Shown here in pieces: positions 13,900 through 62,200 of a stretch of 64,000 bases of DNA. The notes under the pieces were generated by a model, which had not been told where the DNA came from, ran no database searches, and worked only from the letters and a program-made list of their open reading frames with translations. A program made the position numbers and the translations under genes. The stretch comes from Sphagnum compactum. Taxonomy: Eukaryota. The stretch's first letter is position 1, and each line of letters opens with the position of its first letter. The DNA lies in NCBI GenBank assembly GCA_965153455.1, contig OZ234493.1, positions 36,632,213-36,696,212 of the forward strand. Direction: 5' to 3'.

Positions 13900-15660
13900 A
13901 CAACGTATCCTTTTTTATGCCTAATCCACATATATGTATGGTTTCAACTTGTTAATATTGACCAATATTGGGTTTGGTTCAAAATTATTAACATAAACAA
14001 GAATGACAATGTTATTAGGTAAGCAATATTGTACCCTGAATGGGCCAAACCGTCTTTTCTTAAAATTGCCTAGATGTGTATTTTCTTCCTTGTGATTACA
14101 ACAAAACATAATCTCAAAATTGAAACTTCTTCTTTGTGTGATTATGTTGATTCCATAAAAATTTGCTCCATTAGTTTGCTCCAACATTATTCTAAACCTC
14201 CAATTTGTTCTCATGTAACTTTTCCAGTTCTGTAATTCTAACAGTTAGTACTATGGTGGGTTCTCCATCTCTGTGGTCTCCACTAATAGCTGATAGAACA
14301 TATTCTGTTGGCATTAGAGGATGCAAACCATAAATTAATTAGTAAGGTGCATATCATGTTGCCACCTTGTAAGTTGTCTTGTATGAAAATAAATTTGTGG
14401 ACAAATGTTCATCCTAGTCTGTCCTCTTTTCATTGACTAACTTGTTAGTAATCCACCAATAACTTTGTTAATAGACTCTACTTATCCATTTCCTTGTCGG
14501 TAATAAGTAGTATAACTAAGATGTTTTATCAAAAATTATTCTATTAGATGTTTTATTATATCATTAGTGAAATCTTCTCCTTGATCTATAATTATGGTTA
14601 GAGGACATCCAAATCTGGTCAAAATATACTCATACAAAAATCTAGCTGTAACTACTACAATATTGGTTCTGAGTGCTTTTGCCTTTACCCACTTGGCTGC
14701 ATAATTTGTAGTTACCAAAATTGGACCTATAAAATCTAGACCCCACTTCATAAAAGGTTCCTTTGGAAATGTTGTTATTAGTTTGGCTAGACTTTTTGTT
14801 TCTAGTCCTCCAATTCTTTGACAACTATCACAACTTCTACAAAATTCATGAGTATCTTTGAATAAAGTTGGCCACCAATAACATGCATCCAAAATTTTCT
14901 TTGTAGTAATATTTGTAGCAAAATGTCCTCCTACCATTCCTTCATGTAACTCCTTTAGAACAATCTATGTTTCTGAGATGGTCAAACATCTGCGTAATCT
15001 CTTGTCTTATCCCACTTTGTACATTTTTCCCTCTTTAAGACAAAAAGGTTCTGCATGTCTAACTAACTTTTATTTTTGAACTAAGTTCAAAATTTTTAGC
15101 ATCTAACCTATCTTTAAGCAACTTTTCACTTCTTGCATCCATATAGGTTCTATAGAGAATAATGATGCATCTACAATTTGATCTAGTACTCCCAATGGTT
15201 CTAAGCTATCTAGTAATCCAGATAAAACATCAGCTACCACATGTGTTTTACTAGGCTTGTAGACTATTGTGAATTCACATTCCAAAAATAACAACAACCA
15301 TTTGGCTATCCTTCTAAACACCTGTGGTTTGTTCATTACATATGCAAGAGCCACATGGTCTACATAAAAGAAAAATTTGTTTCCCAAAAAAAAATGGTTG
15401 AACTTATGCAAAGCATACAACCATTACTAAGGCTTCTCTCTTTATAGTAGTATAATTTTGCTATGCTTTATTTAGTAGTTTATAAGCATATACTATAGGT
15501 TAGTCATACTTACCAGTTGGGTTTTGTGCTAACATTACACTTATTGCCAGTAAAAATGCATTTGTGTGCACATGGAAATCCAGCTACCAAATTGGAAGTA
15601 TGAGAATTGGTGCTTCCATATATGTTTGCTTGATTTGATCCCAAGTTTCTTAACACTTTT
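13900..15660 (-). mobile_element. Ty3/Gypsy pol remnant: RNase H, integrase and GPF/Y region
   Basis: YALHKF...YVDHVAL...RIAKWLLLFLE (RNase H); GGHF...YWWPTLFKD...CRSCDSCQR (integrase HHCC); PFMKWGLDFIGPI (rve); RRFGPFRV. RNaseH-then-integrase order indicates Gypsy. Confidence 0.9.
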
Positions 15661-26526: not shown

Positions 26527-27987
26527 TTATTCTACTATTAAGGAACATTTAATGTCCCTCAATTTCATGCAAATCTCATCAAACGAAGGTCGAATTTCAG
26601 GGTTTGAATGGAAACAATTTTCAAGTAAGGTGATTAAGCTTGTAGGATATTGTTTTGGAATCTTTGGTCGCAAACCATCTTTAATCTTTTGTCGCAATTC
26701 CATCATCATTGTGATTTCATAAAAAGGCAAATGACCGGTCAAAATTTCGTAACACACCATCCCAAAGCTATATACATCAACTTTGAATGGATATTTTAGG
26801 ATTTTATTAGATTCAATTGATGAGCTTATTGTAGGGCTTTCATCTTCATGTAGTTCAGGAGCCATCCAACGAGTTGTACCAACATTTTCAGTCAAGTTTG
26901 AATATGTGCAAATTGATGATCTAGTTTTGGAGAGCCCAAAATCCGCCACTTTTGCACATACATATTCATCATACTTGATGATGAGAACATTCACTGATTT
27001 CAAGTCTCGGTGCACCACCTTGTTTTGATGCAGGTAACGCATGCCTTCAGCTATTTGCAACATGATGTCCATTGCTTCAAGAAGGCCAAATGGGGCATCA
27101 AGTGTGTTATCTTTGTGCATATTTTCATGCATCAAACTTTGAAGATCCCCATTCATTAGTTCCATGATGAGGGAACAACTTTTATCATCAGTAGCATAAC
27201 AAACAAAAGGCACAATATTTGGGTGGGAAAATCTTGCAAGAAGTGACGCTTCTTGTTGAAAACTTTGCTCAATTGGTCCATTGTAGCACTTTTCTGCAAA
27301 CTTTTGTCCAAGCCAACTTATTTTGTGCACATTTGATACAGATGTTTTGTATAAAGGTTTCAATCGCTTGAGACTATCATATTTCACTTTGCATGCATCC
27401 ATCACATTCACTTCATGAGAGTCCATGCATAATCGTTTGATAAGATATTTGGCCAAAAAAACTTTTTCATCGTCATTATGATCATTTGACATAATTTGAG
27501 CCTCCAAACTAGACAAATTTTTTTGTCGATCGTGAATTGCCATTGCTGTAATAATGTTAATTTCTTCTATCTTGGTATTGTTGCTCCACGTACCAAGTTC
27601 ACACAAGAACTTCTTTGCCTGGCCATAAATGCTCTTTTGCAAAAGTGTTTTGTATAATTCCAATTCAAAAGCTAGTAACACAAAATGTTCTATTGTGTTT
27701 CCCCACATAACAACCTTTTGGATCCATTGGTCATTGCAACAATAATTCACAAGTCTTTCAATATCCTTAGCCACGTGCCAAAGGTTCTTCAAAATCTTTT
27801 CCAAGGTTTGAATGCGTTGTGGTGTCAAATTATGGATGTCTTTATGTGCATCATCCATAACCTTTTTGAGCTTATAAAGCAAGTAGCAACATTGTAATTC
27901 ATTGCTTTGTACTCGATTTTTCAATTCCATAGTGTCCTCCAAATAATGTTTGAATATGGCAATGAAATCACACGATGGCTTTGATCC
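26527..27987 (-). CDS. Terminal exon: N-terminal helical domain (MLKL/MCAfunc-like, tentative) plus TKL/Raf-like protein kinase
   Basis: FAEK, HRDLKSVN, DFG, GTTRWMAPE, DVYSFG and RPSF motifs. Splice acceptor TTAG|GGA at 27989-27988 is in frame 15 codons upstream of the TTG at 27942, with a branch-like ACTAAT upstream. Confidence 0.9.
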   Translation of the reverse strand, partial: GSKPSCDFIAIFKHYLEDTMELKNRVQSNELQCCYLLYKLKKVMDDAHKDIHNLTPQRIQTLEKILKNLWHVAKDIERLVNYCCNDQWIQKVVMWGNTIEHFVLLAFELELYKTLLQKSIYGQAKKFLCELGTWSNNTKIEEINIITAMAIHDRQKNLSSLEAQIMSNDHNDDEKVFLAKYLIKRLCMDSHEVNVMDACKVKYDSLKRLKPLYKTSVSNVHKISWLGQKFAEKCYNGPIEQSFQQEASLLARFSHPNIVPFVCYATDDKSCSLIMELMNGDLQSLMHENMHKDNTLDAPFGLLEAMDIMLQIAEGMRYLHQNKVVHRDLKSVNVLIIKYDEYVCAKVADFGLSKTRSSICTYSNLTENVGTTRWMAPELHEDESPTISSSIESNKILKYPFKVDVYSFGMVCYEILTGHLPFYEITMMMELRQKIKDGLRPKIPKQYPTSLITLLENCFHSNPEIRPSFDEICMKLRDIKCSLIVE

Positions 27988-29507
27988 CTAATTTGTTAAA
28001 ACCAACACAATACATTAGTTTATTAACTACTGGGCATAACTAATAAAACATGGGATGGTGAAGTTATAATATGTTCATCATATTGAGGTATTTATTCAAA
28101 TAATGTGCCATAATCAAGATGAATAAAATACATATTTATGTTCCATGGTTAATATTAAATGCATTCACCTATTTATGGGGTTTACTTTCATTTTTAAAAG
28201 AACATGATAGAAATAGGTTGAATGAAATAACCCATCATCCCCAACTCAAATTGTTGTCAACCTCCTCAAACAAGGTTTTATTAACCATGCATGCATTTGA
28301 ACCACATTCGTAGCTACAAAACATTATGCAATAACGTAAAATACATACATAATATGAATGGTCTTCCACCACCATTTTGGTACAAGAAATTTGAGCATTT
28401 GAGGAATTTTCCCAACCCCACACATACTATCACAAAGTGAAGATATCAATCCCTTCTTTTTGGGTCCTTTGATTTTGTAGTTTGTTCATAAAAGTTTTTA
28501 CTTGGAGATTTATTAAATAAGTCATGATGTTAATTATGCATGCAAGTTTTGTAAATGTCATTTGTGTAAAGACTATTGTAATGCCTTGATAACTTTGACA
28601 TTAATTAAATCACTTTTAGAAATGTGGATTTAAAAAAAAAAAAGATTCAAAGAACAAAATTTTATGAATTTTTTTTATAGAATATTAATGGATATTTTAT
28701 TGTTCAACATGGAATCTTCAAAATTGATTAATTATTCAACAAACATGTGTTGAACTTGCCAATGTACCATGTTATTTTTAAAAGTTTTTTTTTTCTAATC
28801 TTTATGTTTCAATTGAACAACTTGCATGTTTTAATCCCTTGCAAATGGTTCAATGTGAGATTTCCCATGTCCACATGATTAAATATGTCTTCACCTTTGG
28901 GCTTATGTATTTTAAAGGTGAAAACTTTGTGTCCACATGCTAGGAGTGAATTGAACAAGTAAGTACTTGCAAGGTGGTTATTAGTTCCAACTTGGGCTTT
29001 TGATTTCATGTTAGGTTTTTCAAGCATTTGATGTAATTACTTGTTCATTCATAAAGGTTATGATTGGATAGTTAGCAACTATTCTTAGAAAACTTAATGA
29101 TTTAAAAACCAATTATGCAACTTTTTCCAAAACTATATATGTTCGTGAACTTGACATAAATTGCATGAACATGGATGAATTGGTGAATAATTAATTTTTA
29201 TTTTTTTTGACATGACAATATTTTGACAAAGAGCTTTACATTCAAATAAATTATTGTAGGTCATTCATTTATTTTTGACAAATAATGGTTAAATAACATT
29301 CACCAAGGTGTAGATTATTTTATGTTTGTGACTAACATTAATAGAAAAAACTACGCATGTTCTTGGTTACTTGGACAAAACATTAAAAACATATGCCATG
29401 AAGAAAATGATAATAGAACATAAAATGAAAAAAATGAAAGAGGAAAGAGAATCAAATAAGGAAAAATGATTGAATAAAATAGAAATAAGCTCATGATGAA
29501 AAATTAC

Positions 29508-32354
29508 CTTAATGGGAATGGGCTTATCAAAGGTTGAGGGATCAATATTGTTACTCCTTTCTTCCAATTTTTGTTCCATGCTTATTTTGAATTGATGAGA
29601 TATTTCAAACTTCATTAGGGAAGGGTCCATTGTGGAAACAGAATCAAGTTGCTCCAATGAGTTGAATTTTTCAATAGCTTTTTTCAAGCGGCCAATAAAT
29701 GTAGGTAATATTTTCAATTTGGAGCAATCCACCAAACCAAACCTGTCAAGAGTAATCAATTGGTTGATACTTTTAGGTAATTTCCTCAACTCATGGCATC
29801 GTGACAAATCAAGTTGTTCAAGTGCAATCAATTGGCCAAGAGATGTTGGTAATTCTTTTAATTGATTACAATCTGACAAATTGAGCTCTCGAAGATTATT
29901 CAATTGGCCAATAGATGTTGGTAGTTCTTTCAATTTAGAGCACATCGATAAATCCAAATGTTGAAGATTAATCAATTGACCAATGGATGTAGGCAATTCT
30001 CTCAACTTCGAACACCCCAATAAATATAACTCTTTAAGAGCAATCAATTGACCAATAGATGTAGGTAGTTCTTTCAACTCATAACACCTTGACAAATCCA
30101 ATTTTCGAAGAACAACCATTTGACCAATAGATATATGTAATTCCCTCAATTCAGAACATCTAAATAGATCAAATTCTTGAAGAGCAATTAATTGACCAAT
30201 AGATGTAGGTAACTCTTTCAAATTTGAGCACCCCGATAAATCAAACTTTTGAAGAGCAACCAATTGACCAATCGATGTAGGTAGTTTTACCAACTCAATG
30301 CATCCTAACAAATCCAACTTTTGAAGAATAATCAATTGGCCAATAGATATAGGTAATTCTGTTAGTCGAGAGCAACCATAAAACTCAAACTTTTGAAGAG
30401 CAACTAATTGGCCAATAGATGTAGGTAGTTCCTTCAATTTAGAACACCCTGATAAATCCAACTTTTGAAGAGTAATCAATTTGCCAATTGATGAAGGTAG
30501 TTCTTCCAACTCAAGGCACCCTGACAAATCCAATTCTTGAAGGACAAGCAATTTACCAATATCCGTAGGTAGGTTTTTCACCTTAAAACACTTTGATAAA
30601 TCAAACTCTTGGAGTTTAGTTAATTGACAAATAGATTTAGGTATCTCTTCCAAATTTGAACAATTTGATAAATCAAGCTTTTGTAGGTTGACTAATTGGC
30701 CAATAGATGAAGGTAATGTTTTCAATTTTGAGCACCCTGACAAATCAAGCTCTTGGAGATTAATCAAATGGTCAATAGATGTTTGTAGCTCAATTAACTC
30801 ACAACATTTTGACAAATTCAATTTTTGAAGAACAATCAATTTGCCAATAGTTGAAGGTAGTTCCTTCAATTTGAAGCATTCTGATAAATCAAGAATTTGG
30901 AGATTTGTCAATTGATCAATAGACATAAATAATCCTTGTAACTCAAAGCATTTTGATACATTAAATTCTTGGAGAGCAACCAATTGGCCAATAGATGTAG
31001 GTAGTTTTTTCAAATTTGAACACCCTGATAAATCAAGCTTTTGAAGCATAATCAATTGACCAATTGATGTTGGTAACTCTTTTAACTTTGAACATCCCGA
31101 AAAATCCAACTCTTGGAGATTAGTTAAGCGGCCAATAGATGTAAGTGTTTCTTGTAATTGGAAGCACCTTGACAAATCAAATTCTTGGAGAGCAATCAAT
31201 TGATTAATTGATGTAGGTATCTCCTTCAAATTTGAACAACTTGACAAATTGAACTTTTGGAGACCAATTAATTGGCCAATAGATGGAGGTAGTTCTTTCA
31301 ATGTTGAGCACCCTGACATATCAAGCTCTTGAAGAGCAATCAATTGGCCAATAGATGTAGGTAGTTTTTTCAGCTCAAAACACCTTGATAAATCCAACTT
31401 TCGCAAAGCTATCAATTGGCCAATAGATGTAGGTAGTTCTTCTAATTTAGAACACCCTGATAAATCAAACTTTTGAAGGGTAATCAATTGACCGATAGAG
31501 GTAGGTAACTTTTGCAATTCTGAACATTCTGACAAATCCAACTTTCGTAATGCTATCAATTGGCCAATAGATGTAGGTAGTTGTTTTAATCCAGAACACC
31601 CTGATAAATCAAATTCTTGGAGAGTAATCAATTGTTCAATAGATGTAGGTAGTTCTTCCAATTCAGAACAATTTGATAAATCAAGTTGTTGAAAAACACT
31701 CAATTGATTAGTAAATGTAGGCAAGATTTTTAATTCCCAACAATTTGACAATTTAAGATGTTTGAGACCAATCAATTGGCTAATAGATATTGGCAACTCT
31801 TTCAATTTAGAGCATAATGACAAATCAAATTCATGAAGATTAATCAATTTGGCAATTGATGTAGGTAACCCTTTCAATTCAGAGCATTTTGATAAGTCAA
31901 ATTCATTAAGAGCAATTAATTGACCGATAGTTGTAGGTAATTCCAATAATTTAGAACACCCCGACAAATCAAATTTTTGCAAAGCAGTCAATTGGTCAAT
32001 AGATGTAGGTAAATTTTTTAAGTCGGAACACATCGACAAGTTCAATTCTTGAAGGGTAATCAGTTGGCCAATAGATATAGGTAACTCTTTCAACTTGAAG
32101 CACTTTGCCAAATTAAGCACACGCAAGTGAAAACAATGAACCAAATTGTTTGGCAATTCTTCAATCTTAGAATTTTGAAAACGTAGCCATCGCAAATAAT
32201 GTAGGTGTTGTTGATGGATGAAGCCTTCCAAAATATTTTTTGAAACTTCAGTCATGTCCAATAACCTTAAGTTGGGAAGCTTTATATTTTCAAAAAATGA
32301 TGAAGGCAATTCTTCATATCCTTTTAATGACATGCCTTCCAACCTTTGTGCGAC
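29508..32354 (-). CDS. Large LRR exon of an NLR-derived protein (34 uninterrupted 24-aa repeats)
   Basis: Consensus LQxLDLSxCSxLKELPTSIGQLIx. Acceptor GATAG|GTC at 32356-32355 and donor AAG|GTAATT at 29507, both phase 0. Confidence 0.9.
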
Positions 32355-32478
32355 CTATCACATTGAAGATTTAAACATATGAATAACACAACAGAATAAA
32401 CTCAACATTTAGATATAAATATTTCCACTATTCTTATCATAGAAAAAATTGACCAATATCTATTTCCATGGCACTAAC

Positions 32479-32880
32479 CTTTTCTTCTTGCAAAATTTGT
32501 AAATCTTCCTTTGTTGAACCCCATAATCTATTCCTTTCAATAGTTTTTGCAATCTTTTGTCCCATGTCTTCCAATTGTTGATGCATGCTTATCTCTCCAT
32601 TTTTGCTCACTTCCACAATTGATTTGTCTTTCAAGCTTTGCAATCCAATCAAGTGTGATTGAAAATCCCATATTCGAATCGCAGTAGTTTCCTTCAAACC
32701 AGAAAAGTAGCAAGCAATATCCAAAAAAATAGTTCGTTCTATCTCTTGCAAGTCATTGTAATAAGTATGCTCGCCCTTCAAAATCACATCACACCCATCC
32801 AACGCCTCTGAATTGTTCATGTCATGTGAGTTTTTGGGCCTGAACTCACATGGTTGTGGCAATGGAAGAGATGTCAATTT
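32479..32880 (-). CDS. Exon encoding the NB-ARC winged-helix subdomain (RNBS-D and MHD-like motifs)
   Basis: YNDLQEIERTIFLDIACYF and EISMHQQLEDMG. Acceptor GGCAG|AAA at 32882-32881, donor AAG|GTTAG at 32478; the 124-bp intron to the LRR exon keeps frame. Confidence 0.85.
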
Positions 32881-33431: not shown

Positions 33432-33760
33432 CTCTTGTATTTGGTCAGGTTCAAGTGATGTCAACCTATGCTCTTGAGCCAAAGAAGTATGCGTCTCGAT
33501 AAAATTGGGCTGATCAACTATCAATGGACCACCACTCTGCCCTCCTTCCAATTCTGGTTCCATAGTTATTTCCAATTGATGATGAGATGGTTTGCCACTT
33601 GTTTTTGTCCTTGGTGAAGAAGGTTCTTGGGGAACATGTTTTACCATTATGTCACTGGCATCTCTGGTGCCTTGGAAGGGCATCATGACTGGCCACTTCC
33701 AGGGTGGCCACTTCCATAAGACTTGATCGACTTCTCTGGAACCTTGGGGCTCTATTGTCC
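33432..33760 (-). other. Candidate upstream exon (low-complexity peptide), paralogous to 35366-35654
   Basis: ITMEPELEGG...IETHTSLAQEHRLTSLEPDQIQE|GTCAG aligns with ITMVEQEPKGG...IETPISSEQEHQLILLEPNPIE|GTAAC. Confidence 0.45.
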
Positions 33761-35365
33761 AACAGCAGATCCACCGAAGCAAAAAATGGCCGAAAATCCC
33801 AAACTAGAAGACAAAAGAAGACTCAAGGATCAGTGTGATCAGTACTAAAGCTCTCTCACATTTTCAATCACTACATTTTATATTGAATAGCATTGGTACG
33901 AACTTACTTAGTACTAAGTAGTTACCCACTACCTCCCCACCAATTTTATCAATTCCAGAAAGTGGGATATTCACCACTTGAGTTGCCGAGTTTTTATCAG
34001 TGTTGGCCCCCTTGGGCAGTTATTTGATTTTGTTAATGAACTTCTGTTCTGATTTCTTTATTTTTAGAAATCAAAGAACATCCTATTCTGGTTTTTTAAA
34101 CCCCTGAAAGAACTTGCAATTTTAATGAAACAACCAGTTAATCCCAGTAGTTTTGTAGAACGTTATTTGATCAGTTTTTAATTTGATTGAAAATCACAGA
34201 CATATATCAGCTTTGAGTCTTTGATTGCTTGAGAACCATGGTTATATATCTGAACACATTCTTTAATTTTTGAGAATCACAATTCTGAAATTGAAGACCT
34301 GAAACCGAGGGGGGTTTGGTAATACCCACCCAACACTGATTTCTACCAGCATTGGATAGTTCTCATGTTTGGAAAGCTGGGATTGACAAGGATAAGATAT
34401 ATGTGTGCCCTTGATTGATGGCTCTCAAAATCAAAGAACTGGTGTTGACCCTTGATTGGGGAGGTTCTAAAAAATCACAGAACTGGTTTTGACCCTTCAT
34501 TGGGATTCTTTAAAAATCAAAGAACTTAAACTGTTTGGTTTGTTGCCAGTTCTTTCATGAAAACCAACAGTTTTTTTTTATTAAAAAAAAACCTGGAACC
34601 AAAAGGGTCTGTGATGCTGGAAGTATTGAAGAACTAGAATTCTAAAAAATTTGACTAAAACTGTGATTCTAAATTTTTTTCAAGAACCCAGAACTGAAGG
34701 TTCTTTGATTTCTAATAGTTAAAAAACCCAGAACACAATTCTTCACAAAATCAAAAGAACTGTCCAACAGTGGTTTCTACCAGTGTACGAGTCTCTTTAC
34801 TCTTAAGAAGAACATCTGATTCCAGCTCTAAAAAATAAAGTAGAACTGTCACAGTTCTGGTTTCAGACATAAATAGAATCAGGATTCTGGTTCTTAATGA
34901 AATTTCATTTTGGTTTTGATATCAGATCTAAAATCCGGTTTGGTTCTTCGCAGCCCAAACTGGAACTGAGGGGTGATTACTGGTTAAACTCGGAGTAACC
35001 CCCCTTGATTCTTCAGAAACTTGTGTCTCTGTTATGATCCCGGTTCTGGCTCCATATACATAAATAGAACAGAGAACCCGATTCCAGGTCCTATAATTAA
35101 GCGCCGGTTTCAGTTCTGAAAATCAGACCAGATTCCAGTTCGGTTCTTTCTAAGGGGAACTGGCGATTCCCACCGCCAACCGTGCAACGCTGGTTTCTAC
35201 TTTCTCCCAGACAGACAACACAGTAACAAGAACCTCACGAAAACGATGGAAGTTACAGACGAAGCCACGAAGAAAGGGGCCACACAAAGGGCAGGAAACA
35301 CCGAAATGAACCAAACAAGGAGCTCTTAGCAAGAGAAGACAGCACTAAAAGGCCATCAAAGGTTA

Positions 35366-35654
35366 CCTCTATTGGGTTAGGTTCAAGCAATATCAGCTGA
35401 TGCTCTTGCTCCGAAGAGATGGGTGTCTCAATAGAACTCGGGTTATCAAGGATTGTCGAGGGATCATTGACGTTCTCCCCTCCTTTCGGTTCTTGTTCGA
35501 CCATGGTTATCTCTGACTGATGAGATCTTTCGCCAATCCAGCTGATTATGTTGAATGGGGGAGGCTCTGGTGGAATCTGTTTCCCCCAAGCGTCCTTGCA
35601 GCTAGAGGGCAGGCTCTTCATGCCCAGCTCTTCATCCCTAGGGTCCGGTTCCAT
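35366..35654 (-). other. Candidate first coding exon of the LRR-kinase gene
   Basis: ATG at 35654 preceded by a T-rich acceptor (TTTTTTTGCAG); phase-0 donor GAG|GTAAC. Confidence 0.45.
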
Positions 35655-38611: not shown

Positions 38612-39159
38612 CCGACTTTGAATGCCGTTCCTTCCAAACCAGCTACTGTTCAAATAGGAAATACTCCTGGAAATGGGAGACTAATTGAACTCTGCATGCT
38701 TCTGTAGTCTACCCCTCAGAGGAGGAGCCGCTCAAAACAGAGAGAGCACGTGGGATGTACTTGTGACAGAACAGTAGTGGGCCCAAGCGAAATGTCAGCC
38801 AAACATGAGTAACTGACCATTACGGCCGGAGTGACCCAGCCCCCATGACTGCACCAGTTCCGTTTGGGATGAACTCAAGTTCATCCCAATTATTGGATCT
38901 CCTGCAGGCATTGAGGTTGGGTCATTTTAATTTTTTTCCCTCACTTACTTCAAAGCTACCCATTTAAAAAAAAAATTCGACTGCACAAGCATTTCAAATC
39001 CCAACTACCTACCTCCACCCCACCAAAAACCCTAAACCTCGTCGCCACTCAAACCTTACCATTGTAGTTTGTAGGAGGCGAGGAACATTGTTGTAGTCGA
39101 AATTTCAGCGTAGCTGAAGGAGCAAAGGAGCTGTTAAGTGATTAACAGTGATTAGGAAC

Positions 39160-39380
39160 CAAGTGTTGTTACAACATAGCAACTTAATATTGTTGTAACA
39201 TCGAAGCGTAATTAAATGTTGTTGCAAAATTGGAGCGCAAAAGCGATGTTGAAGCAGTGCTGCAAAAGACGATGTTGTAAAGGTGGTGTTGAAGCGGTGT
39301 TGCAAAAGACGATGTTGCAAAAGACGGTGCTGCAGAAGATTTGTTGAAGTGGTGCTGCAAAAAACGCTGCTCCAAAAGAT
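39160..39380. repeat. Short degenerate tandem repeat (TGTTGCAAAAGACG-like)
   Basis: Repeated ATGTTG(C/T)AAAA and GGTGCTGCA units. Confidence 0.65.
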
Positions 39381-39514
39381 AACATGTGCATCTGTGGCAA
39401 GTAAGTTTACATTAGCCCTTTTTTTTTTCTTTGTTTTTTTTTATTCATGTCCCCTTCCAGAGAAAACGATTACAAGTGCTGCACTCGTTTTCAATTTCTA
39501 TTGTTCTTAGGGTA

Positions 39515-41170
39515 GAAGCTGATGACGAATGCAACATTCATTGTCGTCCTGTTCTTCTTATGAAACCAGGGCAGAAAACAACGATGAACGCGCCTCATTG
39601 TTGTCTTTTGTTTGTTTTCCTTGCATTGTAGAAGACAATGACGAGCCTCCCCATTCATCGTCGTTTTCTGCAACTCAAGAAAAAAAAAAAACACAGAAAA
39701 CTAAAAGAAGACGATGAGCTTTTCGGCTCGTCATTGTCCTCTTCAACCCAAGAAAAAAACCTTGATGTTGGTTTTTCTTGGGTTGCAAGAAACAACAATG
39801 AGCCTCCCAACTTGTCATTGTCTCTTAACTTTTTTTCTTCAATTGTAGGAAACGATGACGAGTTGGGAGGCTTGTCGTTGTCTTCTACGATTAAAGAAAA
39901 ACAATCAAGGATGACGACAAGTTGGGATCCCAACTCGTCATCGTCTTTTAGTGTTTTTTTCCCTTAGTTGCGGAAGATGATGACAAGCCGGGATCCCGGC
40001 TCGTTGTCATCCTTTGTAGTTTTTTCTTTAGCTGCAGAAGACAACAACAACCCTCCCGACTCGTTGTCGTCTTCTGCATTTTTTTCAGTTGTAAAAAACG
40101 ACAACAAGCCGAGAGGCTCATCAGCATTTCTTGGTTTTATTCCTTAGTTATAGACAATGACGACATGCTAGGATCCCAGCTCGTTGTTGTCCTTGGTGTT
40201 TTGTTTTTAATTGCAGAAAATGACAACAAGCCTCTTGGCTCATTATCGTTTGCTACATTTTTTTCCTCAGTTGCAGAAGACGATGACAAATCGAAAGGCT
40301 CGTCATCGTCTCTTGGTTTTTTTCTCAAGTGCAGAAAATGACGACGAGTCGAGATCCCGGCTCATCGTCATTCTTGGATTTTTGCTTGAGTTGCAAAAGA
40401 CGACAACAAGCCTCCCAACTTGTTATCGTTTTCTACATTTTTTTCTTTAGGTGCAAAAGACAATAACGAGTCGGGAGGCTCGTTGTCATCTCCTGGTTTT
40501 TTTCCCTCAAGTGCATACGACAACGACAAGCTAGGAACCCAGCTTGTCGTTGTCCTTAGTTTTATTTTTTGCATTTATTTTTAGTTGTAGAAGACAACAA
40601 CGAGCTAAGATGCTCATCGTTGTCATTTCTTGGTTTTTTCTTCAAGTGTAGAAGTTGACAATGAGCCTTATGGCCCGTCATCATCTCTTTATTTTTTTCT
40701 CAAGTGTAGAATATGACAACGAACTAGGAGGCTTGTCATCATTTCTTAGTTTTTTTCTCAAGTGCAGAAGACGACGACGAGCTTCTTAACTCATTGTCAT
40801 CTCTTGGTTTTTTCTTCAAATGCAGAAAATGACGACGAGTTGGGGGGCTCACGGCTTGTTGTCATCTCTTGGTTTTTTTTCTCAAGTGCAGAAGATGCCA
40901 ACGAGTTGGGAGGTTCATTGTCATCTCTTGATTTTTTTCCTCAAGTGCAAAAGACGACGACGAGCCGAGATCTAGGCTCATCGTCATGTTTTGTTGTTTT
41001 GCTTCAGTTGAAGAAGATGACAACGTTGCGACTTGTTGTCATTTTCTACATTTTGTTTTAGTTGTAGAAGACGATGAGGAGTCGTGAGGCTCATCATCAT
41101 CTCTTGGTTTTTTTCATGTAGTGCAAAAGATGATGACGAGCCTCTCGACTCCTCGTTGTCTTTTGCTTTT
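39515..41170. repeat. Minisatellite of ~55-60-bp palindromic units (roughly 25-30 copies)
   Basis: Units GAAGACGACGACGAGCC-N-GGCTCGTCGTCATC separated by T- or A-tracts; several centred on GGGATCCC. Confidence 0.85.
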
Positions 41171-42287
41171 TTTTTTAGTTGTACACAAACGCACCACGTG
41201 TCATGCCCGTATTTAATGTAATTATTAATAAATTTTCAATTATAAAAATTAATTTACATGAATTCATGTAAATAATTAGTCAATATAACCAAATAATTAT
41301 AATAAAAATTAATTTAATAATATAACTTATGATTTATATTAATTCAATTCGATTATAATGAAAAATATAATTATAATACTTAAATTTTATAATTAGATTA
41401 TATTAATTATTGTAATGAAAAATAAAACTTCCAAAGTATAGGGCTTTTAAGCCTTTAAATATAATGAACAATATTTATTATTATTGATATCAAGAACATT
41501 TAAATTTGCAATTCTTTTTATTTCAAGTTGTTGTTTTTGTATAAAAAAGTTGTAACAAGTTGGAAAAAATAAGTTATTATACCTTTTTATACGTTGTTTG
41601 CAATTGTTTGTTTAAGGGAGCTTGAAGTTCTTGGGTAGTGATGGCAATCGTTATTGTTGGGGAAATTCAAGCTTTTGTTTTTCTTTTTTGGATTGATTGT
41701 TGTTTAAGGATTTGAGTGCTTTTGCTGTAGGATGGCACGTCCTTGAAGGAAACTTAAACTCCAAGGAAAGGTGACTGCTGATAATCAACAAGTTAATGTT
41801 GTAGCAAATGAAGAGGAAATTGAAGTGGAACAAATAATTATCATCTACACTCCTACTTTTGAAGGTAAACCTTAATCCCACTCCTATTCTTGAAAGTAAA
41901 TTTGTTGTGATGGATGATACATTTCACATGATAGGGTTGAAAAGAATGTAATGCAACACATTACAAATAAAAAATCTTAATCCAAACCCTAAACCCCATT
42001 TTCATTCTCTATTTGAGAATGGGGATGGGGTTTTTTTATGCCCAATTTTTTCCAAGCAATATCCTCATTGTTTGAAGGTTTTAATTGCTAGCCTATTTGC
42101 AATGCTTTCCTTGTATTTAATGTTTATTTGCTAGTTTGTAATACCTTCATATTTTTAGAGTTCTCTTGCTAGTTTATTTGCAATACCTTCATATTGTGTA
42201 CGGTTTTCTTACTAGTCTGTTTGCAATACTTTCATCATTCTTAAGGATTACTTGCTGATTTGATTTTGAATGTTATTCTTGTAAGGG

Positions 42288-55899: not shown

Positions 55900-56950
55900 T
55901 CCCTCTAAAAGTCCACAAATGGTCAACTAAGTCATCTCAAAGTTGGTAATGAGCATCCTCTTGTCGAATTGTGACTAGTTTTCACATGAGCAAATCTTTT
56001 GAATGACAATAGGATTAGCACTTGGTACTCCTCTAGATGAGTTAAAATCTATTATAGTCAAAAAATTGAATTGAATTCTACATCCCCTTCTTCATCATCA
56101 ACGACCATCTTGTGCATGATCACAATTGTTTTCTAAATCAATTTCATGATTATTTCACTTTGTAGCCACATTGGCAGCACTCCCCATCATGATTATAGAA
56201 TGCCAAATGTGCATTCAATATCTTTGCAAGCCCTTTCTTACATTTTTGCATACCATTTTGGCTTCTCACCTTGTGGTTAAAAGATAGTCTTCTAGAAATA
56301 ACCCAATCCACATATATGCCATTTGCTAGGAGGTAGCACATGTAATAGGCAAGGCCGTAGACAGTGAATTCTACATGTGGGGCAATGCCATGGAGGTAAT
56401 TCACCATGAAAGCGTAGTGATCAACCACATTGATATTGTTTAAAAAACCCAAAAACCTTATAAACCTAGATATAAATGCATGCCAAATCCATAAATCTTT
56501 GGTTAAAATTGCTTCCATCACCAAACTATTGTTGTTAACTTGTTTTGGTATTAACCTTGTTAACTAATCATATAAGTTTTTCACTTGGGCCAATTTGTAA
56601 AATATTCATCTGAACATTTTAAGGAACCTTTGCAATCAATTGAGCTAAATATGCTTCAACATTATATCAGCCAAATTGGGTTCACACAAATATTCTTTTT
56701 TGAAAAAGTCCTTGATTACGTCCCACTTTTTTTGGAAGTACACATTGTAGTTCAAAACAACATTGTGTATTCTCACAACTTCTTGCTCATATGAAATATA
56801 CACCTAAATGCCTCTATTAGATACATGGAATCTTTAGCAAAATAGTCCTACCATTTTCAATTATGAAGCTTTGAAAATCCACAATTTATGTTTGATGCCT
56901 TCCTTCACCATGAACCACCATGTATTGGCACCTCTATTTGAATTGTGATG
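55900..56950 (-). mobile_element. PIF/Harbinger DDE transposase pseudogene
   Basis: SSIDC; MEAILTKDLWIWHAF...NNINVVD; YLLANGIY; C-terminal DDLVDHLW. Confidence 0.85.
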
Positions 56951-59276: not shown

Positions 59277-62200
59277 TTAAGTCTGATGAAGCAATTCAGA
59301 TCTAACCATCTGACATTGCACTAAGAATCTAGCAAGGATGCCTTGCTGCTGATAGCTCATCAATTCAGCCAAAGGTGTGATGGCAGTTAGTGGCAATGAA
59401 CCTCTAAACCTCTCTCGAACACTTTGATAGGCAGGGCAAACCAACAAGAAGTGGTCCTCATCCTCAACCGCACCCAAGTTGCACAATTTGCAGTAACGCT
59501 GCTGCACCGGCACCTTCACTGGCTTGACTTGCCTTCCTAGCTCAATCTGCAGCTTGTGATTCGCACAACGAAAACGTGCCAAGCTTCTCCTAAGCTGTGC
59601 ATTGTTTACCCTGGAGAGGTATTCTTTGTACCCATACTGTGCTGAGCTATTCAACCCCAGATAGGCTCTCACCCTGCTGAAGTCAGCTGCAGCCACTTGA
59701 TGGTGTACAATGTATTGCCTTTCAGCCAACTGCTTGAGGCGAGCACATGGTGGCAGCTGATCACTATCGATGCACAAATTATACGTCGATAGTCATTCAT
59801 CTACTTGTGCTAACCAGCAAGCAGGCAATCGGCTCTTTCTACCCACAGCACTCTGATTCCCGAGTAAGACTTTTTGCCTGGCTGCAAGCAACTGCAGCTG
59901 TACATCATAAGCTAGCCTGAGCATGCGATCTGAGTCTACCTCAGAACACACATGTGAAAGAAAGCACATGGTCTGTTGCCACCAAAATATTTTTAGGGGA
60001 AACCTGCCAAACTCTGCCAACACGATGTAACTGGATTTCGTGGTGCTGACCCCCAGCGACGACTTCAAAAAAGCCTGATGAACCACCTCTAACTGTTCGT
60101 GTGCCATGTGGTCTGACCATACTTCACACCCATAGCTAAGCACTGGTTTGACTAGTGCATCAAACAGTTGGCATTGTAATGCTAGATCAACGATGCGTAG
60201 TTCTGCGCATCTGCGTCGCAATGCAAAAACGGCCTTTTTCCCTGACATTACTAACCGCTGTATTGCAGCTTGCATACCTTTTGTGCCATGCAGCTCAACA
60301 CCTAGATATTTGAAAGAGTTTAGTTGCTCTATAGTTTCGCCCTCATACTGAAAAGCCTGACACACAGACTTGCGTGCTTCAAACACAACAACCTTGGTTT
60401 TCTTGACATTCACAGTCAACTGACGCTCACAACAAAAAGCTTGCAAGACATCCAGTTGCTTCTGCAATCCAGCAGGAGTGTGTGACATGAAAGCTAAGTC
60501 GTCTGCATACAGAAGCAAACGAACAGCTAGCTGTCCCAACATTGGTGGTGCGTCACCCTCCAGAGCATTCAGCCGTTTCTCTAGGCCATCTATGAAGAGG
60601 CCAAACAGGAGCGGGCTGAGGGGGCATCCTTGCTTCACTCCGATGCGGCAAAAGAAAGTGGGCGTGAGCCCCTCCTTTGGATGGTGCAGGCAGGCCTGGT
60701 CTTGACGGTACATGGAGCGCAAGCACTCCAGTATCCGCCCACTGATGCCAAGTCCGTCCAGCACCTGCCACAACAGGTCCCTTGGTACTGTATCAAAGGT
60801 TTTTTTGAAGTCCACAAAACAAGTGTATAACTTCTTTTTATGAAATCTGGCTTGTTCGGTCAAAGTGCGAAGAATAAACAAGTTATCTGTTGTCCTAAAG
60901 TCCTTTCTGAAACCAGCCTGTCCCTTTGCGCGTAAATCATTGGTCTCCGCCCATTGACTGATGCGGGACTCAAGAATCATTGCAAACACCTTGGCTAAGA
61001 CTGGTCCTACTGTGATCCCCCTGTAATTGTGAAACTGACTACAGTCACCCCCTTTGTACAGTGCATGTATGATCCCAACAGAGAGTGATTCACAATAGCC
61101 CTCACGTAGTATTTTGTTGAAAGCAATCAATAGTGGTTGCTGTAGGGGGCAGCCACATCCAAAAGGAACTCTGGTTTGATCCCATCAATGCCTGCAGCTT
61201 TGTGTCGTTTTAGTTTTTTGAGTGCTTACTGTACTTCAACTAGTGTGATGTCAACATTCAACTGTTCGCAATCAATACCATTGGGTGGAAAGGAGACCAC
61301 CTGGGCTTGAATAGCGGCACCTACCACAGCTCCTGCTATGGCTGGTGCCGCCGGAGGCTGCAATAGTTGCTGGAAGCCATCCCTGAGCGCTTTGCTGGTG
61401 ATGCCATTGACACCCTCAGTGCGCTTGTGGTACCGCTTCCAGAATGCTGCAGGATCCACCTTCGCTAAACCACATAGCTGCTTAGCCTTGAGCACATCAT
61501 AAGCATGTTTCTTCCTTTTGTACAACTGTTTCATTTGCTTAAGTCTGACCTGCCTATCTAGGTGTGCATGTGACAATTTAACAAACTGGCTTTTGGTCTG
61601 GCGACATTCTGTGTCAAACCAGGGTTTGTGGCTGTGTTTTATTGCTTTTCCTAAGGCCACTTGTCTATTTCCAAACACTTCTTCTGCAGATTGTGTGATG
61701 CACTGTTGTAACATATTGACTGTTGTTTGTACGTCAGATGCATCAAGTACATCTGGGCTTGCCCAGACACCGATGTTATGCTGTACACTCCTGCTAAACT
61801 CTGTTGCTTTGGCAATGTCATATTTGAAACGTGGTAGGTGTTTGATTGCCTTTTGCTGAACAGGAAGGGGTTGCCACTGCTGTGTGATTGTAAGTATCAA
61901 TGGTCTATGATCAGAGTGCGCATCTTTGTGACCTGAGTACTTTTCATCGCAGTTAACCTCTAAATGCTTGACACCCTCTAATTGGTCAGCTGTCGTAAGA
62001 AAATAGTCCATAGTGCTAAAACCTTTATTGCATAGGCATGTGTACTCCCCTGATATGTCTCCTGGTGTGCGGCCATTGAGGATGAATAGCCCAGCAATTC
62101 TGCAGAGATCTAGGAACTCACGATGCCAGCCAGCCGTGACAGTGTCGCGGTTCTGGCGCTCCAGCATATCGTTGGGCAGGGTGTCCTCAATGGCCTGTGG

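Follow-up and report, generated by a model that had tools for sequence, protein, structure and literature searches.

A Sphagnum gene model in which leucine-rich repeats from a TIR-type NLR relic precede an MLKL-like bundle, brace and kinase

The stretch of Sphagnum compactum DNA analyzed here, called the window below, comprises 64,000 nucleotides (assembly GCA_965153455.1, contig OZ234493.1, positions 36,632,213 to 36,696,212 of the forward strand). At the locus under study the DNA is eukaryotic and AT-rich, with a GC content of about 0.29-0.36, and the minus strand carries three large open frames of 164, 995 and 486 amino acids (aa), which encode, respectively, a winged helix (WHD), an array of leucine-rich repeats (LRRs) and a kinase. 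These frames appear to belong to one intact gene of five exons, predicted to run from 35654 to 26527 and orthologous to CY35_08G000500 of Sphagnum magellanicum. Every exon is open and joined in frame to the next, all four introns are of the GT..AG type and in phase 0, and the model product has 1789 aa. The predicted protein can be divided into four parts: an N-terminal region of ~220 aa, a relic of a TIR-type nucleotide-binding receptor with leucine-rich repeats (NLR), a short linker, and a complete module resembling the plant MLKL proteins (Table 1).

An initial annotation of this locus, made from the sequence alone and covering 26527 to 32880, had proposed that the LRR frame is spliced to the kinase frame through a phase-0 donor after PIPIK at 29507 and an in-frame phase-0 acceptor at 27988 before GSKPSC, giving a protein of more than 1500 aa. 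Both sites are present. The LRR frame ends with CCC ATT AAG/GTAATT, with the lysine codon at 29510-29508 and the GT at 29507-29506, and the kinase frame starts with AAATTAG/GGA TCA AAG, with the AG at 27989-27988. Of the borders that had been given, 26527 is where the TAA stop ends and 32880 is exactly the acceptor of the winged-helix exon, but the gene starts ~2.8 kb further upstream, and two 5' exons (35654-35367 and 33803-33432), both included in the S. magellanicum model, had been overlooked.

Table 1. Predicted features of the window; a slash marks a splice site, and E-values are given where available.
Feature	Position	Strand	Details
Exon 1	35367..35654	-	96 aa; ATG at 35654; donor GAG/GTAACC; 93.7% identity to P0249 residues 1-95 (tblastn)
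Exon 2	33432..33803	-	124 aa; acceptor CTAG/TTT; donor GAG/GTCAGT; aligned to P0249 residues 97-205
Exon 3	32479..32880	-	134 aa; ARC2 end and winged helix; acceptor GCAG/AAA; donor AAG/GTTAGT
Exon 4	29508..32354	-	949 aa; LRR domain; acceptor ATAG/GTC; donor AAG/GTAATT; 94% identical to P0249 residues 344-1282
Periodic LRR array	29709..32084	-	33 units of 24 residues in strict register, flanked by irregular repeats; consensus LPTSIGQLIALQKLDLSGCSELKE
Intron 4	27988..29507	-	1520 nt; GT..AG; GC 0.277; junction predicted by the initial annotation
Exon 5	26530..27987	-	bundle, brace and kinase; first codon at 27987
HeLo-like helical bundle	27628..27978	-	exon-5 residues 4-120; long helices 4-25, 30-51, 56-83 and 99-120, short helix 88-95 (AlphaFold2)
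Brace helices	27430..27618	-	exon-5 residues 124-166 and 173-186; link bundle to kinase (AlphaFold2)
TKL-type kinase(-like) domain	26533..27390	-	exon-5 residues 200-485; K233, HRD 326-328, DFG 349-351 and APE present
TAA stop	26527..26529	-	directly after the kinase domain
Integrase zinc-binding domain, transposon fragment	14539-14964	-	E 1.1e-12
Plant_tran (PIF/Harbinger-type), transposon fragment	56153-56563	-	E 3.8e-17
Reverse transcriptase RVT_1, transposon fragment	59796-61184	-	E 4.8e-31

As a gene model, the LRR-kinase fusion holds, because the same junction is annotated in the orthologue (KAH9553293-5; P0249 hereafter), a protein of 1767 aa deposited as "hypothetical protein". P0249 crosses the predicted junction as ...IEPIPK/GSKPSCD..., its alignment to exon 4 reaching 29514 and that to exon 5 setting in at 27987. 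Its tblastn matches to the window form four blocks, 92-94% identical, which end and start at the predicted exon borders, and identity is even over the parts of the protein (0.92-0.955); exon 2 is 12 residues longer here than in the S. magellanicum model. The kinase frame has its nearest database protein in P0001 (96% identity), and P0249 is a member of the 90%-identity cluster headed by P0001. The S. magellanicum genome is described, in the available text of its report, as annotated from models based on RNA-seq, PASA and homology, to which PASA contributed alternative transcripts (PMC9946827), and the three accession numbers of the orthologous protein presumably stand for three transcripts. 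A single LRR-kinase transcript is supported through this public annotation, rather than the separate transcripts that the initial annotation had named as evidence against its proposal.

It could still be argued that the gene model is an artefact, in which the winged helix-LRR relic and an MLKL-like gene are separate transcripts, or the LRR part is a pseudogene, merged through compatible frames. Taken alone, an acceptor AG at the start of an open reading frame (ORF) delimited by two stops is weak evidence, because the TAG stop supplies it, and such sites are frequent by chance. In metagenomes, the genes called for the near-identical kinase part (P0001, 467 aa) start at M20 of exon 5. Furthermore, when P0249 residues 1228-1345 were used as a query against database proteins shorter than 971 aa, each of the three matches covered one side of the junction only, and there is thus no independent transcript-like evidence from this source. 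However, exon 5 lacks an ATG in the interval from the upstream stop to M20, and its residues 1-19 are nevertheless homologous to the corresponding part of its relatives (18 of the 19 positions are occupied in 46-58 of 62 homologues, position 5 in only six) and form most of helix 1 in the AlphaFold2 model (residues 4-25); an upstream exon is therefore required. No alternative first exon was detected by tblastn with stand-alone homologues, among which P0002 aligns only from residue 26. A paralogue, P0040, has LRRs followed by the module in one uninterrupted frame of 579 aa on a 4.5-kb contig, and the uniform phase and borders of the four introns, together with a frame intact over 1789 codons, also speak against an accidental merger. 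We consider this explanation very unlikely.

The NLR-derived part of the protein begins in exon 3, which matches the Pfam family WHD_ROQ1 (PF23282, the winged helix of TIR-type NLRs; E 8e-11) and, in BLASTP (E 1e-10), can be aligned to a TIR-NLR of Sphagnum, P0127, over residues 410-516 of the latter, where the end of ARC2 and the winged helix are located. Its MHD position reads MHQ. Exon 4 matches LRR_14 (6e-90) and LRR_13 (RPS4B-like, 4e-50) and holds about 34 LRRs of 24 residues. The spacing of 31 regular-expression anchors is 24 residues in 28 cases, 48 in one and 72 in one, and the underlying DNA has a 72-nt period with 31.8 copies over 29802-32093 (TRF). The repeats are followed by a non-repeat tail of ~60 aa that ends in PIPIK. 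No TIR or NB-ARC sequence could be found in the 64-kb window by tblastn with parts of P0127, P0130 and P0165 at E<=1e-3, the best match at E<=10 having an E-value of 2.2, and Pfam identified neither domain in P0249. By these alignments, the predicted NLR part is what remains of a TIR-type NLR, a relic in which nothing but the ARC2 end, the winged helix and the ~34 LRRs was kept. This is not the complete chassis of an NLR with an integrated domain (NLR-ID), as both the NB-ARC and an N-terminal signalling domain are missing. A kinase of the ROCO/LRRK type was considered and rejected: neither Roc nor COR was present in Pfam scans of the window parts and P0249, and the space between LRRs and kinase is taken up by the bundle and brace.

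Upstream of the relic, exons 1 and 2 encode ~220 aa with no recognisable domain. Pfam returned no match to them, including none to a TIR, coiled-coil (CC) or RPW8 signalling domain, and an ESM Atlas search with residues 1-210 of the orthologue gave no usable match. The second half of exon 2 repeats the second half of exon 1, with the shared pattern ITM..EP...G......D.P..IE......EH.L..LEP. The GC content of exons 1 and 2 is 0.50 and 0.46, respectively, compared to 0.33-0.37 in exons 3-5. These two exons may have an origin different from that of the rest of the gene.

Exon 5 was modelled with AlphaFold2, using a 63-member family alignment, as a helical bundle, a brace and a kinase fold (pLDDT 87, pTM 0.90). 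In Pfam, the last 250 residues of the 486-aa frame match PK_Tyr_Ser-Thr (2.3e-48). When this model was compared with the PDB by Foldseek, the top match was the tetramer of Arabidopsis AtMLKL3 (6ka4; E 1.9e-19, TMq 0.73, 527 columns, ~25% identity), whereas kinase-only matches reached a TMq of only about 0.46-0.49. A PDB sequence search of the same exon placed the AtMLKL2 tetramer 6lba (1.2e-44) and 6ka4 (3.7e-40) first, followed by Roco4, TNNI3K and BRAF at ~1e-28; the two tetramers are named as in the Foldseek table. The bundle and brace, modelled alone as a 196-aa segment (pLDDT 87.5), again had AtMLKL3 and AtMLKL2 at ranks 1 and 2 (TMq 0.61 and 0.54), with the other matches listed at 0.37 or below. 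The 63-member family profile aligned with AtMLKL3 (6ka4) over profile positions 30-505 in a single alignment that included the brace, and its bundle alone matched residues 23-123 of AtMLKL2 with an independent E-value of 7.2e-4. With hhalign, the N-terminal columns of the family were aligned to the N-termini of four DUF1221-bearing proteins, three from Sphagnum and one from Adiantum, over 170 columns (probability 98.7%, E 2e-16). When the helical segment was used as a single-sequence query, phmmer matched only 39 of 1.84 billion representatives at E<=1e-3. By predicted fold and by profile, the helical segment is a four-helix bundle (4HB) plus brace of the plant-MLKL (DUF1221) type. The initial annotation had guessed at an MLKL/MCAfunc-like bundle of ~150 aa and had suggested AlphaFold as a check, the lack of a 4HB/HeLo-like fold being what would speak against it. 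The MLKL likeness emerged from the structural model, the profile and hhalign alike, but the segment is about 190 aa long when bundle and brace are counted, and Pfam gave no direct match to MCAfunc or MLKL_NTD.

Arabidopsis MLKL1-3 (6KA4, 6LBA) have the same order of an N-terminal four-helix bundle, a brace and a TKL-type kinase fold, and they are the best PDB match of the module by sequence, profile and fold. They differ in that their bundle is N-terminal and that a serine-rich tail follows the kinase. In the window, the bundle begins near residue 1307 of 1789 and is thus internal, behind ~1300 residues that include the winged helix and LRRs, and a stop directly after the kinase domain leaves no room for such a C-terminal tail. 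The AtMLKLs are reported to be devoid of canonical catalytic residues (10.1101/681015, in the text available), and in our alignment they show HGD and GFG, whereas the protein of the window keeps the lysine, HRD and DFG and loses only the Gly-rich loop. The vertebrate protein is more distant: MLKL of 4BTF shares the four-helix bundle, the brace and the kinase fold, but its Foldseek match was weak (rank 33, 491 columns, TMq 0.43, root-mean-square deviation 18.7), and it was absent from the Foldseek matches of the isolated helical segment. Vertebrate MLKL is described as a pseudokinase that is activated by RIPK3 (10.1101/681015).

The bundle-brace unit could be identified in 185 of the 260 proteins gathered from the searches (hmmsearch, E<=1e-5). 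It starts fewer than 100 residues from the N-terminus in 161 of these, at a distance of 100-299 residues in six and of at least 300 residues in 18; six proteins have two units, and in some Ceratodon proteins the unit occurs twice in tandem. Besides the orthologue P0249, it lies behind LRRs or a full TIR-NLR in P0127, P0130, P0131 and P0255, as judged by Pfam scan for P0127 and P0249, by precomputed Pfam lists for P0130 and P0131, and by eye for the repeats of P0255. In other moss proteins, it stands behind domains that, by their Pfam accessions in the precomputed lists, would be phytochrome-type (P0171), lectin (P0156, P0167), HSP70 and hydrolase-like. P0012, P0051, P0056, P0126 and P0121-P0125 also belong to these multidomain or tandem proteins; in P0012, which was scanned, Abhydrolase_6 was below the Pfam cut-off. 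DUF1221 itself is carried by Sphagnum P0181 (2.7e-6) and P0188 (1.7e-5), which were scanned, and, by precomputed lists, by Sphagnum P0189 and Adiantum P0180. HRD and DFG are kept in P0180, P0181 and P0188, while P0189 keeps HRD and has AGF at the DFG position. The members of the seed-plant clade are described as pseudokinases.

The moss kinase-NLRs (Pkn-NLR/PNL) have the reverse order. That they carry the kinase at the N-terminus, as the initial annotation had stated, holds for P0165 of Ceratodon purpureus (KC19_6G093000), in which the N-terminal unit is followed by DUF676, NB-ARC, WHD and LRR. P0165 has a WHD_ROQ1 domain and LRRs of the type seen in the window, and its hydrolase-like DUF676 domain and complete NB-ARC go beyond the parts present there. 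Exon 5 is matched over its full length, including the bundle and brace, by residues 35-523 of P0165 (35% identity, E 2e-85), and it therefore seems that moss kinase-NLRs carry an MLKL-like unit and not only a kinase.

The breadth of this family raises the possibility that the present protein is an LRR-regulated signalling kinase, in which bundle, brace and kinase form a general output module of mosses, the helical part serves for dimerisation or autoinhibition, and the signal is relayed by phosphorylation or by scaffolding. The many different sensor-type domains found upstream of the module would fit this, as would the nearest solved relatives after the AtMLKLs, namely Roco4, TNNI3K, BRAF and CTR1. 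The family as a whole looks catalytically competent: in its alignment, the lysine is conserved in 63/63 members and the aspartates of HRD and of DFG in 59/63 each. However, both glycines of the Gly-rich loop, kept in 62 of the 63 aligned members, are replaced in the window (Y213 and T215), and kinase subdomain VIb of the orthologue P0249 reads HQD, whereas the window and the 96%-identical P0001 have HRD. Since P0249 reads HQD and the loss of the loop is shared, a drift towards a pseudokinase is suggested. The link to the AtMLKLs by fold and profile also extends over bundle and brace, beyond what a kinase alone would account for. A signalling kinase is, in our opinion, an unlikely description of this gene.

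Several Sphagnum proteins have a similar order of parts. In P0127, P0130, P0131, P0255 and P0040, LRRs precede bundle, brace and kinase, and the modules are 48-49% identical to that of the window. The initial annotation had called the architecture unusual; the arrangement of LRRs and module in one chain stands, but it is not unique, as the module lies behind a full TIR-NB-ARC-LRR protein elsewhere in Sphagnum. P0127, P0130 and P0131 have a complete TIR and NB-ARC, both absent from the window, and the Gly loop (G.G) is kept in these modules and lost in the window. P0255 begins within LRR repeats, as far as can be judged by eye, and P0040 has only a short LRR stub. The linker and LRR sequences of the Sphagnum fusions differ from those of the window (36% identity), and their modules form a separate clade. 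This was seen in a quick maximum-likelihood tree of 75 modules, comprising the window, 68 rows that passed a hidden Markov model cut of 1e-60 and extended for 400 residues or more past the module start, and six outgroup sequences; P0249 and P0001 were dropped by this cut. The module of the window lies beside P0002 and P0126 on a long branch (0.74, compared to a median of 0.068), and its placement is unsure. Because it falls outside the clade of the other LRR-fused forms, at least two changes are needed to account for the LRR-fused state.

The existence of full TIR-NB-ARC-LRR-module proteins in the same genus could mean that the gene is the decaying remnant of a TIR-NLR with an integrated MLKL-like decoy, and now either lacks a function or serves as a bait or regulator that depends for signalling on another, complete NLR. 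For NLRs of non-flowering plants, kinases appear in the list of integrated domains, and NLR-IDs are described as expanded in Sphagnum (PMC11218826, in the text available). A remnant would be consistent with the absence of TIR and NB-ARC, the MHQ at the MHD position, the long branch and lost Gly loop of the module, and a neighbourhood rich in transposon fragments. A frame of 1789 codons, and of 1767 in the orthologue, is nevertheless not expected under neutral decay. In a neutral simulation of the coding sequence, none of 2000 copies remained free of stops at ~101 amino-acid changes, and 48 of 2000 did at 50 changes. Between the window and P0249, LRR scaffold positions differ less often than other positions (8/297 vs 30/495, p=0.038). 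Both results support the view that the ORF was kept by selection. There is also no NLR partner gene in the 64-kb window: no further NLR-like stretch was detected by tblastn, and the other scanned ORFs of at least 110 aa had no immune-receptor match in Pfam. Finally, in the tree the full TIR-NLR fusions do not have their modules as sisters of the one in the window, and simple truncation of that fusion lineage is therefore not supported, as far as the uncertain position of the long branch allows. It is quite improbable that the gene is a decaying remnant.

Wheat offers a functional precedent. For R3NLR and R3AK, the available text reports that the NLR needs its LRR and that a separate 4HB-kinase MLKL executes cell death via the 4HB (10.64898/2026.08.07.743466). 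As in the window, a 4HB-kinase with conserved catalytic motifs is linked to the LRR of an NLR, but the wheat pair consists of two proteins with a complete NLR, whereas the window has a single chain without an NB-ARC. The 4HB-kinase fusions of the Poales are ascribed in the same source to an independent monocot origin and involve other kinase subfamilies (10.64898/2026.08.07.743466). The resistance protein Pm13 is likewise described as a 4HB-kinase with intact catalytic motifs (PMC10951266, in the text available), and the Arabidopsis MLKLs are reported to sustain Ca2+ influx in the immunity of TIR-NLRs (review PMC12712434, in the text available).

On balance, the locus as a whole is probably best explained as encoding a cytosolic immune receptor with an LRR-gated, MLKL-type output and without a nucleotide switch, so that a sensor and an executor would be combined in one chain. 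In such a receptor, the part made up of winged helix and LRRs would keep the MLKL-like module autoinhibited and would bind a ligand or a guarded host protein. After release, bundle and brace might self-associate and act at the membrane, causing ion leak or cell death in the manner of the AtMLKLs and wheat R3AK. The degenerate kinase would then serve as a regulatory switch more than as an enzyme.

A number of observations weigh against an LRR-gated executor of this kind. N-terminal tags block killing by vertebrate MLKL, and the bundle in the window has a long N-terminal extension of its own. The first helix of wheat R3AK is reported to be needed for death (10.64898/2026.08.07.743466), and in the window this helix is internal. 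Without an NB-ARC, the protein has no known oligomerisation switch. The kinase looks half-degenerate in sequence, and the loss of the Gly loop, unique among the 63 family members, together with the long branch could also mean relaxed constraint. The predicted concave face of the LRRs is not enriched in differences from P0249 (7/165 vs 31/627, p=0.84), so there is no sign of ligand-driven diversification between the two. With respect to the bundle, the Foldseek E-values of the isolated segment were weak (0.087 and 0.25, with no matches at E<=1e-3). Pfam DUF1221, which matches the AtMLKL type, does not match the segment of the window: at E<=10, the 196 aa gave no DUF1221 (PF06760), HeLo, MLKL_NTD, MCAfunc or RPW8, and four weak unrelated matches. 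The one-sided matches at the LRR-kinase junction among shorter proteins belong to the same list.

The plant MLKLs known to date are seed-plant proteins that stand alone and have their role downstream of TIR-NLRs; in 2026, one was reported to be the executor partner of a wheat NLR. To our knowledge, the NLR-MLKL partnership has so far been observed in trans only, in Arabidopsis and wheat. If NLR-type LRRs and an MLKL-like module are naturally fused in a single chain, this would amount to "Rosetta-stone" evidence for their joint action, from a lineage ~450 million years distant. The gene would also provide a minimal system in which to ask whether an MLKL-type bundle can be gated by LRRs alone when there is no NB-ARC, and the presence of the bundle-brace unit in moss kinase-NLRs and other multidomain proteins would re-label a whole class of bryophyte receptors. 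More tentatively still, the MLKL-type bundle, brace and kinase might be a portable death or signal output of mosses that was wired to various sensors: in one chain without a nucleotide switch in the window, behind TIR-NLRs in the sister genes, and in front of the receptor in the kinase-NLRs. The NLR-MLKL partnership would then be ancient in land plants and repeatedly hard-wired by fusion, with the moss forms representing the catalytically competent ancestor of the MLKL pseudokinases of seed plants; we offer this as a doubtful but possible outline. The protein is already public in GenBank as hypothetical, and kinases are already listed as integrated domains of Sphagnum NLRs. Our searches of open-access literature turned up no account of mosses in which NLR parts are fused to an MLKL/HeLo-kinase. 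The available main text of PMC11218826 does not mention an MLKL-like unit in moss kinase-NLRs, lacks the word "HeLo" and has MLKL only as an NLRtracker class, and the supplementary tables of that paper may list the locus.

Outside the gene, two regions of the window are distinguished by their composition. The segment 20001-22000 is extremely AT-rich, with a GC content of 0.169, compared to 0.3-0.45 elsewhere. At about 39100-41250, the sequence is of low complexity and repeat-like, and numerous overlapping open frames on both strands encode similar short motifs.

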